DNA from: a virus
Lineage: Duplodnaviria > Heunggongvirae > Uroviricota > Caudoviricetes
Reading direction: 5' to 3' (one strand)
DNA length: 3,389 nucleotides
IMG/VR virus record: IMGVR_UViG_2693429642_000028
Shown: positions 1 through 3,389 of the stretch, piece after piece
How the letters are laid out: the number at the start of each line of letters is the position of its first letter
Position numbering within the stretch: the first letter of the stretch is position 1
Program-made: the position numbers and the translations under genes
The notes under the pieces: model-generated
Database searches by the model: none
Told to the model about the DNA's origin: nothing
Seen by the model: the letters and a program-made list of their open reading frames with translations, nothing else

Positions 1-315
1 GACAGTCTCCGGAAGACGGTTGTTGCGCACGTATTCGGTGAACGCACTATGGCGACGCTGGGGCGTCTTATGAGCCTGCTGTCACCCTTTGACGTGGTGA
101 TATGGATGACGGATGGCTGGCCGCTGTATGAATCCCGCCTGAAGGGAAAGCTGCACGTAATCAGCAAGCGATATACGCAGCGAATTGAGCGGCATAACCT
201 GAATCTGAGGCAGCACCTGGCACGGCTGGGACGGAAGTCGCTGTCGTTCTCAAAATCGGTGGAGCTGCATGACAAAGTCATCGGGCATTATCTGAACATA
301 AAACACTATCAATAA
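1..315 (+). CDS. insB: IS1 transposase InsB (C-terminal portion of InsAB'), 5'-partial at window edge
   Basis: Frame 1 reads [44 protein letters not shown]…[13 protein letters not shown] with stop TAA at 313-315. This is the recognised InsB C-terminus. The 88-aa ORF in the track starts at an internal Met; the true CDS continues upstream of the window. Confidence 0.93.
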
Positions 316-330
316 GTTGGAGTCATTACC
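308..330 (+). repeat. IS1 terminal inverted repeat (right end of element)
   Basis: Reverse complement of 308-330 is GGTAATGACTCCAACTTATTGAT, the 23-bp IS1 terminal IR. The IS1/host junction is therefore at 330/331. Confidence 0.85.
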
Positions 331-447
331 GTGAGCTTCTTCGCCTTCGGCAAGGCCTTCGAAGTATTCTTCGTAAGCCTTTTCCATGATTGTGTCAAAA
401 TCCATATCACTCACCTGAGTTTCTTTCCAGCCAGCGACGGGCACCAT
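331..447 (-). pseudogene. 3'-truncated host/prophage ORF interrupted by the IS1 insertion
   Basis: The minus-strand reading frame MVPVAGWKETQVSDMDFDTIMEKAYEEYFEGLAEGEEAH runs without a stop straight into the IS1 inverted repeat at 330 and only terminates inside IS1 (track ORF 250-447). The native C-terminus has been replaced by IS1-derived sequence. The same frame is open further upstream to ~480 without an ATG. Confidence 0.6.
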
Positions 448-643
448 TTTCGGTTTTAAACGTTTTGCTTTTGGTATACGTCATCGCGGTGAACGTACCG
501 TCCTGGTTGGGGAACACGCCACATACCAGAGATTCGCTGTTGCCAAGATCGATAGTATCCATGCTGACCTCATTTCCCCTTAACGCCGGGGTAGCGGAAC
601 AAAAACCTGCTGCATAGTTATTAAAGTTGAACCCTGCCGTCAT
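407..643 (-). CDS. Hypothetical small protein (78 aa as called) immediately downstream of the repressor; possibly the N-terminal part of one larger gene that is frameshifted and then IS1-disrupted
   Basis: ORF MTAGFNFNNYAAGF…TYTKSKTFKTENGARRWLERNSGE, with GAGG 9 nt upstream of the ATG at 643. An alternative internal start MDTIDLG… has GAGGT 4-5 nt upstream. It overlaps the IS1-truncated ORF by 41 bp in a different frame. I do not recognise the family. Confidence 0.4.
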   Translation of the reverse strand: MTAGFNFNNYAAGFCSATPALRGNEVSMDTIDLGNSESLVCGVFPNQDGTFTAMTYTKSKTFKTENGARRWLERNSGE

Positions 644-741
644 GTTCTTACGCCTCGGGCTGGCTACTTAACCCCTGACCACTGCCTGGTAACTCGAAGT
701 ATTGCCCTGCATTCTGTGGGGTGGGGAGAGGGAATGAATGA

Positions 742-770
742 AGTTTAGAAAAATGAACTTTTCAGGTCAA
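742..770 (-). promoter_or_regulatory. Candidate sigma70 promoter (minus strand) for the ORF starting at 643
   Basis: Minus-strand TTGACC (plus 765-770), a 17-nt spacer, then TAAACT (plus 742-747). Hexamer match only; no experimental support. Confidence 0.2.
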
Positions 771-854
771 TGTTTTTTTATCAAAACATTTTAAGCAGGC
801 AGCTGTTAAGCCATCACCACGATGGCATACAGTTAATCAAATAGATGAGGTCGG

Positions 855-1493
855 TTAAATATCTTGTTGAATTTTAAAGCATACGCCCAATATGCAAGAT
901 AGATCATCCAGCATAATTGAAGGGTAGCGAGGATTCGTGGGGACTAAAAGAATATCCGGCCCTTCTATCTCCAGTTTACGAATGACAGGTGTTGTGGTCC
1001 CTTTGGGTAAGGCAAGGACAATATTTCCTGGTTGTACGGTTCGATCGGGATCAACAAAAACTGTTGAACCATTTGGGATGGAAACTCCCCCACCAGATGT
1101 TGACATACTGTCACTCTCTAGAACAACTGCAAAGGTATTGGCCGGGATTTCTCCGACAAGCTGCACACAAGAGGTTATTGAGGAATTTTTCATATAATCA
1201 CTCCAGCTTGCTGCCTGCTGAAGTGATAGTAGCGGAACCGTTTTTATCGGCGGTAAAGATAGATCAAGCGAATCACCTGTATTTAACTCTCCTCCATTAA
1301 GAAGCCAATTTTCGTTTACTTTCAATATTTTTGCCAGTGAACTTATGTAACGCGAGGACGGCGCTCCTCCACCGTTCATCCATTGACTTACGGAGCCTTT
1401 TGATGCGCCAGTGGCATTGACAAGGTCTTTGCCTTTCAGGTTTAGCGCATGCATACGTTGGGTTATGCGTTCAGATATTGTTTGCTTGCTCAT
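855..1493 (-). CDS. CI/LexA-like prophage repressor: N-terminal XRE-type HTH plus C-terminal S24 (LexA-like) peptidase domain
   Basis: 212-aa ORF. The N-terminus carries an HTH-like segment (…GKDLVNATGASKGSVSQWMNG…). The C-terminus aligns by eye with lambda cI: ESDSM vs EGNSM (catalytic Ser), FVDPDRTVQPGNIV vs LVDPEQAVEPGDFC, VIRKLE vs FKKLIR (catalytic Lys), LVPTNPRYPSIM vs LQPLNPQYPMIP. It is divergent from the rightward early genes. No Shine-Dalgarno precedes the ATG. Confidence 0.93.
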   Translation of the reverse strand: MSKQTISERITQRMHALNLKGKDLVNATGASKGSVSQWMNGGGAPSSRYISSLAKILKVNENWLLNGGELNTGDSLDLSLPPIKTVPLLSLQQAASWSDYMKNSSITSCVQLVGEIPANTFAVVLESDSMSTSGGGVSIPNGSTVFVDPDRTVQPGNIVLALPKGTTTPVIRKLEIEGPDILLVPTNPRYPSIMLDDLSCILGVCFKIQQDI

Positions 1494-1556
1494 GTTTTGA
1501 TTTTAAAACACAGATGGTTTTGTTTCTTGACTTTCTTTGGTTTTGATTATTAAACT
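1493..1556. promoter_or_regulatory. Divergent immunity-region operator/promoter: three GTTTTG-initiated sites at 23-bp spacing, with PRM-like and PR-like promoter candidates
   Basis: GTTTTG occurs at 1494, 1517 and 1540, exactly 23 bp apart. Site 1493-1510 TGTTTTGATTTTAAAACA has 6-bp inverted arms (TGTTTT-N6-AAAACA). Site 1540-1555 GTTTTGATTATTAAAC is a close relative. A rightward -35 TTGACT lies at 1527-1532 with -10 candidates around 1548-1556. A leftward -10 TAAAAT (plus 1500-1505) sits 6 nt from the repressor ATG. Confidence 0.5.
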
Positions 1557-1584
1557 TTTGGCGTTCAGTTTTATGGAGCGACTC

Positions 1585-1827
1585 ATGAAAAAATCAGAAG
1601 TATTAGGCTATTTTGGCGGAGTTGTTAAAACAGCCGCAGCTCTAGGAACGTCAAAAACCACAGTCAGCATGTGGGGGGAAGAGGTTCCGTGGAAATGGGC
1701 GTTGCTAATTCAGGCAGTCACTGCCGGGGCGCTCAAATATGAGTTACACATACCGACGGTTGTCATTCCCGGTTCTGATCATAATCCGCCTTCTAACCAA
1801 GGGGGGATTCATGAAAATCAAGCATGA
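1585..1827 (+). CDS. Cro-like HTH early regulator (YdaS-like)
   Basis: MKKSEVLGYFGGVVKTAAALGTSKTTVSMWGEEVPWKW… has a Cro/CI-type HTH signature (AAALGTSKTTVSMW). GGAG lies 7 nt upstream of the ATG at 1585. It is the first gene transcribed divergently from the repressor. The track ORF starts further upstream (1537, and in-frame 1573), but those ATGs lack an RBS. Confidence 0.8.
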   Translation: MKKSEVLGYFGGVVKTAAALGTSKTTVSMWGEEVPWKWALLIQAVTAGALKYELHIPTVVIPGSDHNPPSNQGGIHENQA

Positions 1828-2236
1828 ACACATCCGCATGGCGATGAATGCCTGGGCGCGTCCTGATGGCGAAAAAGTTCCGGCAGCTGGAATAACCCAG
1901 GCTTATTTTGAGTTGGGTATGACGTTTCCTGAACTGTACGACGACAGCCATCCGGAAGCCCTGGCTCGCAATACCCAGAAAATTTTCCGCTGGATAGAGA
2001 AAGACACCCCTGATGCAGTTGAAAAAATTCAGGCGTTGTTACCAGCTATCGAAAAAGCAATGCCACCTCTGCTGGTGGCCCGAATGCGCAGTCATAGCTC
2101 AGCCTATTTTCGGGAACTAGTGGAGACGCGGGAGCGACTGGTGAGAGACGCTGATGATTTTGTCGCAGTGGCAATCGCCGGTTTCAATCAGATGAACCGT
2201 GGTGGCCCGGCAGGAAATGCTGTGGCAGTGCATTGA
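1811..2236 (+). CDS. YdaT-like early regulatory protein (reported functional analogue of CII), ~141 aa
   Basis: Start ATG at 1811 is preceded by a strong SD (AAGGGGGG) and overlaps the Cro-like stop by 17 nt. The N-terminus MKIKHEHI… and the ~140-aa size match my recollection of the YdaT family, which follows a Cro-like YdaS gene in Rac/CP-933P-type prophages. Family membership was not verified by search. Confidence 0.75.
   Translation: MKIKHEHIRMAMNAWARPDGEKVPAAGITQAYFELGMTFPELYDDSHPEALARNTQKIFRWIEKDTPDAVEKIQALLPAIEKAMPPLLVARMRSHSSAYFRELVETRERLVRDADDFVAVAIAGFNQMNRGGPAGNAVAVH
2071..2078 (+). other. Chi octamer GCTGGTGG
   Basis: Exact match to the E. coli Chi recombination hotspot sequence on the plus strand, inside the YdaT-like CDS. 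A single occurrence may be chance. Confidence 0.7.
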
Positions 2237-2306
2237 GTGATAATAGCCATATCGAATCGCTTCCGGCAACTCGTGAGTAAAAGATTCGGTATCAGAAGAG
2301 GTGAGT

Positions 2307-3389
2307 ATGGCTAACGCCTGGCTCAGATTATGGCATGACATGCCAAATGACCCTAAGTGGCGAACAATTGCCAGAGTGTCAGGGCAGCCAATTGCAACAG
2401 TGATGGCAGTGTATATCCACCTCCTGGTGAGCGCGTCACGAAATGTCACGCGAGGTCACATTGATGTCACGACAGAAGATTTGGCAAGTGCGCTCGACGT
2501 GACAGAAGAGGTAATTGATTCAATTTTGCAGACGATGCAGGGGCGGGTACTTGATGGTGATTTAATCACTGGATGGGAAAAACGCCAGGTGCTTAAAGAG
2601 GACAACGGCAATATTTCGCAAACCGCAAAATCTCCTGCAGAGCGCAAGAGGGCGCAGCGAGAGAGGGAAAGAAAGCGGGAACAAAATGGCGATTGTCACG
2701 GCGCGTCACGAAATGTCACGCACATGTCACGACGAGTCACGACAGATAAAGATACAGATAAAGATACAGATAAAGATACAGATCAAGAAGATCAAAACAC
2801 TATGGTCCATGGCGTAAAAAACGCCACGAACCAGGCAGGGGATGTTCAGACCGTCAATCTTGGTCAGCCAGCAGGCACGACACCGGAAGCCGATTCAGCG
2901 TATGCGCTGAAAGCCGATTCGGGCGCTGTGCAGCAGGTGATGACCGCAAGGCCGGAGCAATCACACCAACTGCAGCAGCCCGAAGCCGATTCCGCCATTC
3001 AGCGGGAAGCCGATCGGGTAGTCCCGGAAAACACCGGGCAGTCTGTGGGACGAGTGGATTATCCGGATGTGTTCGAACAGGTCTGGCGGGAGTACCCGTT
3101 GCGTGCCGGAGCAAACCCGAAGAAATCCGCTTTCAGTGCCTGGAAGGCCAGATTACGCGAGGGGGTGCCACCAGAAGCCATGCTGGATGGCGTGAGGCGT
3201 TACGCAAGATACTTGGCGGCTACCGGGAAAACGGGAACGGAATTTGTTCAGCGAGCGACGACGTTTTTTGGACCGGACCGGAATTTTGAGAACCCCTGGT
3301 TGCTCCCGGTAAGCGGCACGAACAACCAGCGTTGTGTGAATCATATTTCTGAACCGGATAACGAAATTCCGCCGGGCTTCAGGGGGTAA
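2307..3389 (+). CDS. Phage replication initiation protein (lambda-O-like replisome organizer), complete, 360 aa from ATG 2307
   Basis: SD AGAGGTGAG lies just upstream of ATG 2307 (the track begins at in-frame GTG 2301). The N-terminus MANAWLRLWHDMPNDPKWRTIARVSG… resembles the N-terminal DNA-binding domain of phage replication initiators. The middle is a charged low-complexity linker (…ERKRAQRERERKREQ…TDKDTDKDTDKDTD…). The C-terminal domain carries DYPDVFEQVWREYP…AFSAWKARL. Position after Cro/CII-like genes fits the lambdoid O slot. Stop TAA at 3387-3389. Confidence 0.85.
   Translation: MANAWLRLWHDMPNDPKWRTIARVSGQPIATVMAVYIHLLVSASRNVTRGHIDVTTEDLASALDVTEEVIDSILQTMQGRVLDGDLITGWEKRQVLKEDNGNISQTAKSPAERKRAQRERERKREQNGDCHGASRNVTHMSRRVTTDKDTDKDTDKDTDQEDQNTMVHGVKNATNQAGDVQTVNLGQPAGTTPEADSAYALKADSGAVQQVMTARPEQSHQLQQPEADSAIQREADRVVPENTGQSVGRVDYPDVFEQVWREYPLRAGANPKKSAFSAWKARLREGVPPEAMLDGVRRYARYLAATGKTGTEFVQRATTFFGPDRNFENPWLLPVSGTNNQRCVNHISEPDNEIPPGFRG
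2431..2471 (+). repeat. Iteron cluster 1: four GTCAC(G/A) repeats at 10-11-bp phasing inside the replication gene
   Basis: GTCACG at 2435, 2445 and 2466, and GTCACA at 2455. The 21-mer GCGCGTCACGAAATGTCACGC (2431-2451) is identical to 2701-2721. An inverted copy CGTGAC lies at 2498-2503. Confidence 0.6.
2695..2746 (+). repeat. Iteron cluster 2: five GTCACG repeats at 10-11-bp phasing
   Basis: GTCACG at 2695, 2705, 2715, 2726 and 2736 (spacings 10, 10, 11, 10). It is immediately followed by the A-rich tandem repeat. The last unit GTCACGACAGA is shared with the end of cluster 1 (2466-2476). Confidence 0.65.
2742..2789 (+). repeat. 12-bp direct tandem repeat ACAGATAAAGAT: three perfect copies plus a degenerate fourth (ACAGATCAAGAA)
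   Basis: Read directly: perfect copies at 2742-2753, 2754-2765 and 2766-2777, degenerate copy at 2778-2789. In frame it encodes (TDKD)n in the linker of the replication protein. Two GATC sites at 2782-2785 and 2790-2793. Confidence 0.9.

Follow-up and report, generated by a model that had tools for sequence, protein, structure and literature searches.

The 3,389-bp stretch of DNA analysed here (the window, taken at its full length) belongs to IMG/VR virus record IMGVR_UViG_2693429642_000028 and covers the part of a lambdoid prophage that carries its immunity and replication genes; the prophage is of the Qin/Rac-like type known from E. coli. The last gene of the window encodes a replication initiator, or replisome organiser, and two arrays of short direct repeats (iterons) and an A-rich tract lie within its coding sequence. 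Our analysis points to a replication origin embedded in this gene, where the following features were annotated:

2307–3389, plus strand: initiator/replisome-organiser gene, 360 amino acids, ending with the window (open reading frame list, PHROG, PGAP)
2307–2591, plus strand: N-terminal winged-helix domain, about residues 1–95 (AlphaFold2 model)
2435–2471, plus strand: cluster 1, four direct GTCAC(G/A) iterons at 2435, 2445, 2455, and 2466
2498–2503, minus strand: inverted iteron (CGTGAC on the plus strand)
2695–2741, plus strand: cluster 2, five direct GTCACG iterons at 2695, 2705, 2715, 2726, and 2736
2742–2800, plus strand: A-rich, low-GC tract, 12-bp tandem ACAGATAAAGAT ×3.9, then GATC sites
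2803–2833: inverted repeat immediately right of the A-rich tract, with a 13-pair stem and a 5-nt loop

The hexamer GTCACR has ten matches in the window, nine direct and one inverted, all within 2435–2741. Dinucleotide-preserving shuffles of the window gave a mean of 3.05 matches and a maximum of 8, and none of 200 shuffles reached 10. The direct copies are spaced by 10, 10, and 11 bp in cluster 1 and by 10, 10, 11, and 10 bp in cluster 2. A 21-mer, GCGCGTCACGAAATGTCACGC, is identical at 2431–2451 and 2701–2721, and the terminal unit, GTCACGACAGA, recurs exactly at 2466 and 2736. An earlier, sequence-only reading of this DNA had described nine GTCAC(G/A) repeats in two clusters phased at 10–11 bp, a 21-mer and a terminal unit common to both, and a second, upstream cluster within the code of the N-terminal domain. 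All of these were found as stated, cluster 1 corresponding to codons 43–55 of the winged-helix domain; the inverted copy was not among the repeats it described. In the complete 46.4-kb genome of the related phage Tritos, clustered GTCACR sites occur only in these two arrays.

The A-rich tract starts directly after the last iteron of cluster 2. Tandem Repeats Finder reported a period of 12 at 2742–2788 (3.9 copies, 97% matches, unit ACAGATAAAGAT), and GATC sites lie at 2781 and 2790, in agreement with the earlier claim that cluster 2 abuts an A/T-rich tract of 12-bp repeats with two GATC sites. The GC fraction is 0.28 at 2750–2799 versus about 0.54 on either side, and the plus strand has a strong excess of A. 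The tract encodes DKDT repeats in a predicted disordered region of the protein, and we propose 2742–2800 as a candidate DNA-unwinding element. The copy number of the 12-bp unit varies among near-identical relatives, Tritos (L004, gene 3008–4078) having one DKDT unit fewer; the proposed unwinding tract is therefore length-polymorphic, probably through slippage. The inverted repeat at 2803–2833 folds as single-stranded DNA with −8.7 kcal/mol (z = −3.2) and may be part of the origin. In the lambda origin, too, a palindrome lies on the right-hand side of the AT-rich region.

The initiator gene starts at ATG 2307, about 6 nt downstream of the ribosome-binding site AAGAGG; GTG 2301 is an alternative start. 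The product matches phrog_3729, 'replication initiation protein', at E = 4e-256, and identical copies carry the PGAP/RefSeq name 'phage replisome organizer'. The N-termini of the homologues begin with MANxWLRLW. This motif is internal in two annotated products whose starts look too far upstream, by 24 codons in Aeromonas phage pAEv1818 (L002, 2429–3346) and by 57 codons in MW202785.1 (L140, 1315–2316). The structure was predicted with AlphaFold2 using an alignment of 58 sequences, and the mean predicted local distance difference test score of 10-residue blocks was 80–97 over residues 11–90. The predicted helices span residues 4–11, 16–25, 29–45, 56–63, and 67–77, followed by a beta wing at 78–88, a basic helix at 110–126, and a low-confidence stretch that is presumably a disordered linker. 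On this model, cluster 1 encodes residues 43–55 (ASRNVTRGHIDVT), which complete helix 3 and form the loop leading into the helix-turn-helix. The inverted iteron, three helical turns past the last direct copy of cluster 1, encodes D64-V65-T66 in the turn of the helix-turn-helix, and cluster 2 encodes residues 130–145, in the predicted disordered linker after the basic helix.

With the whole protein as query, no Pfam family was matched at E ≤ 0.01, lambda O (Phage_rep_O) included, and only Phage_rep_org_N and HTH_Crp_2 appeared at E ≤ 10, both weakly. One of the 58 homologues matched Phage_rep_org_N at E < 0.01. A Rep_3-type initiator domain was matched in none of Pfam, NCBIfam, and PHROG. The best Foldseek match among viral structures was an unnamed protein (E = 7e-5), the named replisome-organiser and Lin1244-like matches being weak (E about 0.1), and all Foldseek matches in the PDB had E > 0.1 and were generic winged-helix regulators. 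Sequence-profile searches found no solved homologue.

The C-terminal domains differ completely among relatives that have the N-terminal domain (N-domain) and the repeats in common, and are DnaT-like, Phg_2220_C, or unassigned. The DnaT DNA-binding domain is present in 17 of the 58 homologues; in the protein studied here, the C-terminal tail (window 3318–3389, the last 24 codons; EPDNEIPPGFRG) resembles the C-terminal end of DnaT at E = 4e-4, far below the cut-off. The next gene in the E. coli relatives is DUF977 rather than a helicase loader, and a DnaB-type helicase gene directly follows in the Aeromonas, Ralstonia, and cyanophage relatives (L136, 8093–8515). This arrangement suggests that one origin-binding module has been joined to different helicase-recruitment routes.

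The nine direct hexamers begin in all three codon phases, encoding V-T, S-R, and G/C-H, and their period of 10–11 bp is not a multiple of three. Synonymous-site conservation across homologues, the check put forward with the sequence-only reading, was determined using 51 homologous loci from one-genome-per-species GTDB contigs together with phage homologues identified by BLAST. An N-domain scan of viral contigs gave only copies with 99–100% identity, and the diversity comes from the GTDB scan and the phage BLAST search. From a codon alignment of 23 non-redundant GTCACG-type genes, we took the codons for conserved amino acids with degenerate codons. The modal-codon fraction was 0.95 in the iteron cores (13 codons, both clusters) versus 0.51 elsewhere (54 codons; Mann–Whitney p = 8e-8). 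Core synonymous positions are near-invariant in both clusters: Ser44 is TCA in 22/23 genes, Val47 is GTC, Thr48 is ACG, and Gly50 is GGT in 23/23, and His51 is CAC in 22/22. Val65, in the inverted iteron, is GTG in 20/20. The neighbouring Leu, Val, Ala, Arg, and Glu residues use three to six codons each in the same alignment.

GTCAC is absent from homologues at 38–60% identity, which come from alpha-, beta-, and gamma-proteobacteria and from a Ralstonia phage; these have another hexamer in the same two places, again with a spacing of 10–11 bp. We assigned at least a dozen of them to a CGAACG(C) class, four to a GTAACG class, and one to a GTGACG class, and Ralstonia phage Firinga uses GCAACG(C). 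For each class, cluster 1 and cluster 2 give the same sequence logo, and the peptide encoded by cluster 1 changes with the hexamer class (SRNVTRGH, NATERGRTQ, and others). Retention of the peptide with loss of the nucleotide repeats, the outcome that the sequence-only reading had named as speaking against it, was looked for, and the opposite was found: the hexamer differs in both clusters, and the peptide follows. In a blind test, some hexamer had to occur at least twice in both region A (gene nt 100–270) and region B (nt 290–470). This was the case for 43 of 55 genes and for 1.3% of the codon-shuffled controls, and three of the 12 failures (L090, L099, and L110) still have both arrays, with a GTCACA variant or a shifted cluster 2. 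Because the repeats run through three reading frames, have fixed synonymous sites, and change hexamer in pairs among homologues, we conclude from these alignments that they are DNA elements under DNA-level selection, and not peptide repeats.

Cluster 1 is found at the same gene position in Enterobacteria, Pseudomonas, Aeromonas, Bordetella, the Ralstonia phage, and others, written in each homologue's own hexamer. An inverted GTGAC at about gene nt 193 is present in 20 of the 26 GTCAC-class genes; inverted copies after cluster 1 also occur in Firinga and in the GTAACG class, and do not occur in the CGAACG class. Cluster 2 has three to six copies in nearly all homologues, always beside a purine-rich tract, and in most of them a (GAYANN)n tract encoding DK/DT/EE follows. 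In the AT-rich genomes L111, L113, and L120, only two degenerate copies of cluster 2 precede a long (GATAAA)n run. The number of iterons changes by 21-bp insertions or deletions, equal to seven codons and two helical turns, such as the one encoding TCHGVSL in the E. albertii and O157-type copies. At gene nt 129–181 of the Escherichia albertii gene (L086; P0017), a 21-bp insertion adds two phased iterons to cluster 1, giving six in total, in a loop of the folded domain. Longer insertions at the cluster 1 loop in L105, L107, L109, L110, L119, and Firinga are also made of iterons.

The same N-domain and the same iterons are joined to unrelated C-terminal domains and different immunity genes; therefore, the repeats go with the N-domain. 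Two genes, L123 (a Serratia metagenome-assembled genome) and L132 (Pantoea), keep the N-domain and have a different protein part after it, with ACTACGTA-type repeats and palindromes (gene nt about 320–380) in the place of cluster 2 and no cluster 1. These may represent a different origin type or a different function.

We consider it likely that the initiator gene contains a lambda-like embedded origin with cluster 1 as a conserved auxiliary initiator-binding array. The reading of cluster 2 and the adjoining tract as iterons plus an unwinding element of the ori-lambda kind, which had been made from the sequence, is supported by their position in the linker code, the GC fraction of 0.28, and the DNA-level selection. 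We infer initiator binding, origin activity, looping, and the sign of the cluster 1 effect (stimulation or restraint) as follows. The N-terminal winged-helix domains of the initiator would bind the cluster 2 hexamers side by side and head to tail, one per helical turn, and the adjoining 28%-GC, purine-rich tract at 2742–2800 would be the site of duplex opening. The interchangeable C-terminal domain would then bring in the helicase. Host primosome proteins would probably mediate this step in the E. coli version, given its DnaT-like tail and the absence of a loader gene after it. The site would also be traversed by transcription from the rightward early promoter. Cluster 1, located about 225–260 bp upstream with its additional inverted copy, would provide a second binding array for the same protein. 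Its role is most likely auxiliary: it would raise the local occupancy of the initiator and bridge to cluster 2, looping or wrapping the intervening 225–260 bp or so and thereby helping or tuning origin firing. Alternatively, the bridging might restrain opening, as in iteron plasmids.

A further idea, which we hold to be doubtful, is that the loop encoded by cluster 1 (residues 45–55, SRNVTRGH versus NATERGRTQ) helps to read the variable bases of the iteron, placing the site and its reader in one stretch of DNA. In the folded domain, the only residues that discriminate the classes are N14/T14 and the iteron-encoded loop, and the basic helix (residues 100–126) also differs between classes. Specificity determinants were sought among these residues, but the result is confounded: the association of loop and class follows from the fact that the iterons themselves encode the loop. 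If the idea holds, one change would affect the site and its reader together, and origin specificity would be fully switched once that change had been copied into cluster 2. Such a self-referential protein–DNA recognition code would offer a route to new, mutually non-interfering replication specificities among prophages.

Three other explanations were weighed against an embedded origin with an auxiliary array. The repeats could be a by-product of protein constraint: a required peptide (ASRNVT...VT) would have been copied into the linker in the same reading frame, and the DNA itself would serve no purpose. The common 21-mer does lie in the same frame in both clusters, encoding ASRNVT twice, and the ASRNVT...VT motif is invariant in close homologues. 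Against this, the synonymous positions of the cores are almost fixed where other conserved residues vary among three to six codons, the hexamer yields a different dipeptide in each of its three frames, the 10–11-bp spacing does not keep frame, and cluster 2 falls in a predicted disordered region whose sequence is otherwise free. In the other classes, moreover, the peptide is completely different and the phased-hexamer design is kept. A protein-level repeat was rejected on the reading frames and the synonymous-site fixation, and the chance that it accounts for the arrays is close to negligible. It is hardly more probable, and still very improbable, that the arrays are bound by another factor, such as a host protein, the repressor, Cro, a terminase, or a partition protein, and serve packaging, partition, or transcription control. 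Phased arrays of short repeats are also found in pac and par sites. A host factor or repressor is nevertheless an unlikely binder because the iterons persist across unrelated immunity genes and three proteobacterial classes: Tritos has a different repressor and Cro, with an annotated Rha-family gene in the place of the YdaT-like gene, and the Pseudomonas phages have other neighbouring genes. Homologues of this single gene also differ in hexamer class. Nor would a plasmid partition site be expected, since the prophages with this module carry integrases and are integrated, and iterons with an A-rich tract inside an initiator gene are the classic origin layout (PMC7466680, PMC6316719).

The third explanation shares its binding protein with the auxiliary-array reading and differs from it only in the sign of the effect. 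Cluster 1 could be a negative control element. Initiator bound to it might handcuff the array to cluster 2 or to a second copy of the genome, as in iteron plasmids, or the bound array might block RNA polymerase inside the gene and thereby limit initiator supply and origin firing. We regard this as unlikely, although clearly less so than the two explanations above. Split arrays of one iteron control copy number in P1, F, and RK2. Cluster 1 is dispensable in some lineages, as would fit a regulatory site; it comes early in the transcript, with most of the coding sequence downstream of it, and is followed by an inverted copy. On the other side, limiting copy number has no obvious benefit for lytic phage replication, and a consensus scan detected no promoter or operator features at cluster 1. 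In lambda, transcription through the origin region stimulates replication and is not blocked by the O complex (PMC7466680 and references therein).

Several observations weigh against the lambda-like origin with an auxiliary array. Cluster 1 is absent or unrecognisable in L111, L113, L120, L126, L129, and L130, all of which have cluster 2. Because of these six homologues, cluster 1 is not essential to every member of the family, and the pattern suggests that cluster 2 and the tract form the core element, to which cluster 1 is a frequent but dispensable addition. Among the more distant phage relatives, the Microcystis phage gene (L139) has no repeats, and the cyanophage gene (L141) has only weak ones. 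Measured between their last copies, the clusters are 249, 258, 267, 270, or 339 bp apart, with no constant helical phase. A rigid, phase-dependent loop set by fixed inter-cluster phasing is not favoured, since the distances vary in steps of 3–9 bp. A search for DnaA boxes near the clusters gave one match with a single mismatch, distant from them and no more than chance would give. The window as a whole shows no enrichment of GATC, on which ground a Dam/SeqA role of the two GATC sites was rejected. In PLSDB, no small plasmid has the module as its sole replicon.

Among the points on this side are also the family searches. Homology of the initiator to lambda O was not detectable by sequence, and the match to PF09681 (Phage_rep_org_N) scored 16.6 bits (E = 0.008) against a cut-off of 23.3. 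TIGR01714 likewise scored 19.2 bits against a cut-off of 49.8, though residues 5–125 align to the whole model (positions 1–119). Because of the missing lambda O match and the below-threshold Phage_rep_org_N score, we describe the element as working like the embedded origins of lambda and SPP1, and not as a family member. By these profile scores, membership in Phage_rep_org_N is not established, and the likeness to lambda and SPP1 is one of architecture and not of protein family.

The matches in PLSDB were large plasmids with prophage segments and two Pseudomonas records of 50.9 kb. The latter are the Pseudomonas aeruginosa records CP137943.1 and CP124671.1, both deposited as plasmids. They contain the homologue of the Pseudomonas phages, are similar in length to the related phages, and probably represent circular phage genomes picked up during assembly. 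The queried segment, 331–3389, was covered to at least 80% in at least 729 of 5,426 complete E. coli genomes and is also present in sequenced E. coli phage records, e.g. Tritos and Evi. The N-domain was present in only 26 of 50,697 phage records, none of them a classical model phage, and homologues of the gene occur in phages of Pseudomonas, Aeromonas, and Ralstonia.

The remainder of the window has the following features:

1–330: IS1 end (last 330 bp, comprising the end of insB and the terminal inverted repeat)
407–643, minus strand: DUF1391 ydfA-like gene
855–1493, minus strand: S24-peptidase repressor
1527–1556, plus strand: promoter-like site TTGACT-18-TAAACT, between the divergent repressor and cro genes (consensus scan only)
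1585–1827, plus strand: P22-Cro-like gene
1811–2236, plus strand: YdaT-like gene

The early genes thus follow the order repressor (minus strand), cro, ydaT-like gene, and initiator (plus strand). The promoter-like site at 1527–1556 probably serves as the rightward early promoter, from which transcription would run across the predicted origin. A scan for promoters and terminators gave no convincing internal promoter; a minus-strand 'promoter' at 2719–2692, with a score of 9/12, is made of iteron sequence. The YdaT-like reading frame (ATG 1811) overlaps the end of the cro-like frame by 17 nt in a different frame, and this tight early-operon packing is consistent with translational coupling. On the left, the IS1 abuts a ydfB-like reading frame (250–447, minus strand) that runs into the element, and the left arm of the prophage appears to have been interrupted by the IS1 insertion.

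An origin embedded in an initiator gene is textbook knowledge, and this one is of an already known kind. What is new is a large uncharacterised initiator family with a 6–7-bp iteron at a 10–11-bp period, a conserved second array superimposed on the code of the DNA-binding domain, and the existence of five or more natural iteron classes between which the two arrays change in concert. Our search of open-access papers found no literature on the GTCACR iteron or on an origin of this replisome-organiser kind, although earlier work is possible. The element offers a well-defined candidate origin for a large prophage group and a natural case of two codes in one sequence, in which binding sites and protein code occupy the same bases down to a structured domain. 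The specificity classes, at least five in number, provide material for studying how initiators and their sites change together. Since cluster 1 can be removed wholly by synonymous changes, its role as an enhancer, loop anchor, or brake is cleanly separable from the protein.

In lambda and the Stx phages, gene O has iterons and an AT-rich tract in its central part, additional iterons lengthen the O protein, and Stx-phage variants of ori-lambda have six iterons (PMC7466680). The candidate origin described here resembles ori-lambda in its location within the initiator gene, with a direct-repeat array beside an AT-rich, strand-asymmetric tract, and cluster 2 similarly falls in the linker code between the DNA-binding N-domain and the helicase-recruiting C-terminal domain. 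It also belongs to a rightward early operon after cro, and added iterons lengthen the protein. A lambda iteron spans 19 bp, is internally dyad-symmetric, and binds a dimer, whereas the iteron cores here are 6–7 bp long at a 10–11-bp period. The candidate origin further differs in having a second array about 225–260 bp upstream in the code of the DNA-binding domain, plus an inverted copy, in showing no detectable O homology, and, in the E. coli version, in having no P-type loader gene next to it.

The replisome organiser gp38 of SPP1 binds direct repeats beside an AT-rich unwinding element in gene 38 (oriL) and a second site, oriR, which is intergenic, about 13 kb away, and an origin-like unit with its own AT-rich element (PMC6316719). 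Here too, repeats lie beside an AT-rich element in the initiator's own gene, a second repeat set exists, and the N-domain is weakly similar over its full length to Phage_rep_org_N. Unlike oriR, the second array lies within the initiator gene, about 225–260 bp away, and lacks a separate AT-rich tract.

Iteron plasmids likewise combine two separate arrays of a single iteron, of which one adjoins an AT-rich region. P1 (incC/incA), F (incB/incC), and RK2 oriV (5 + 3) have split arrays a few hundred bp apart, which lie around or inside the initiator gene, some with single inverted iterons. Their iterons are 17–22 bp long and are bound by RepA-family proteins with two winged-helix domains. In contrast to the arrays described here, those of the plasmids are intergenic and do not lie over the code of a DNA-binding domain, and the present initiator has no Rep_3-type domain. 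The satellite phage P4 has two clusters of one short repeat, at ori and crr, both bound by the initiator and both needed for replication; several kb separate these two sites, and a primase-helicase, the alpha protein, serves as the initiator. The bipartite repeat clusters are thus a feature in common with P4, whereas the initiator is unrelated and the arrays lie much closer together, about 225–260 bp compared with several kb.

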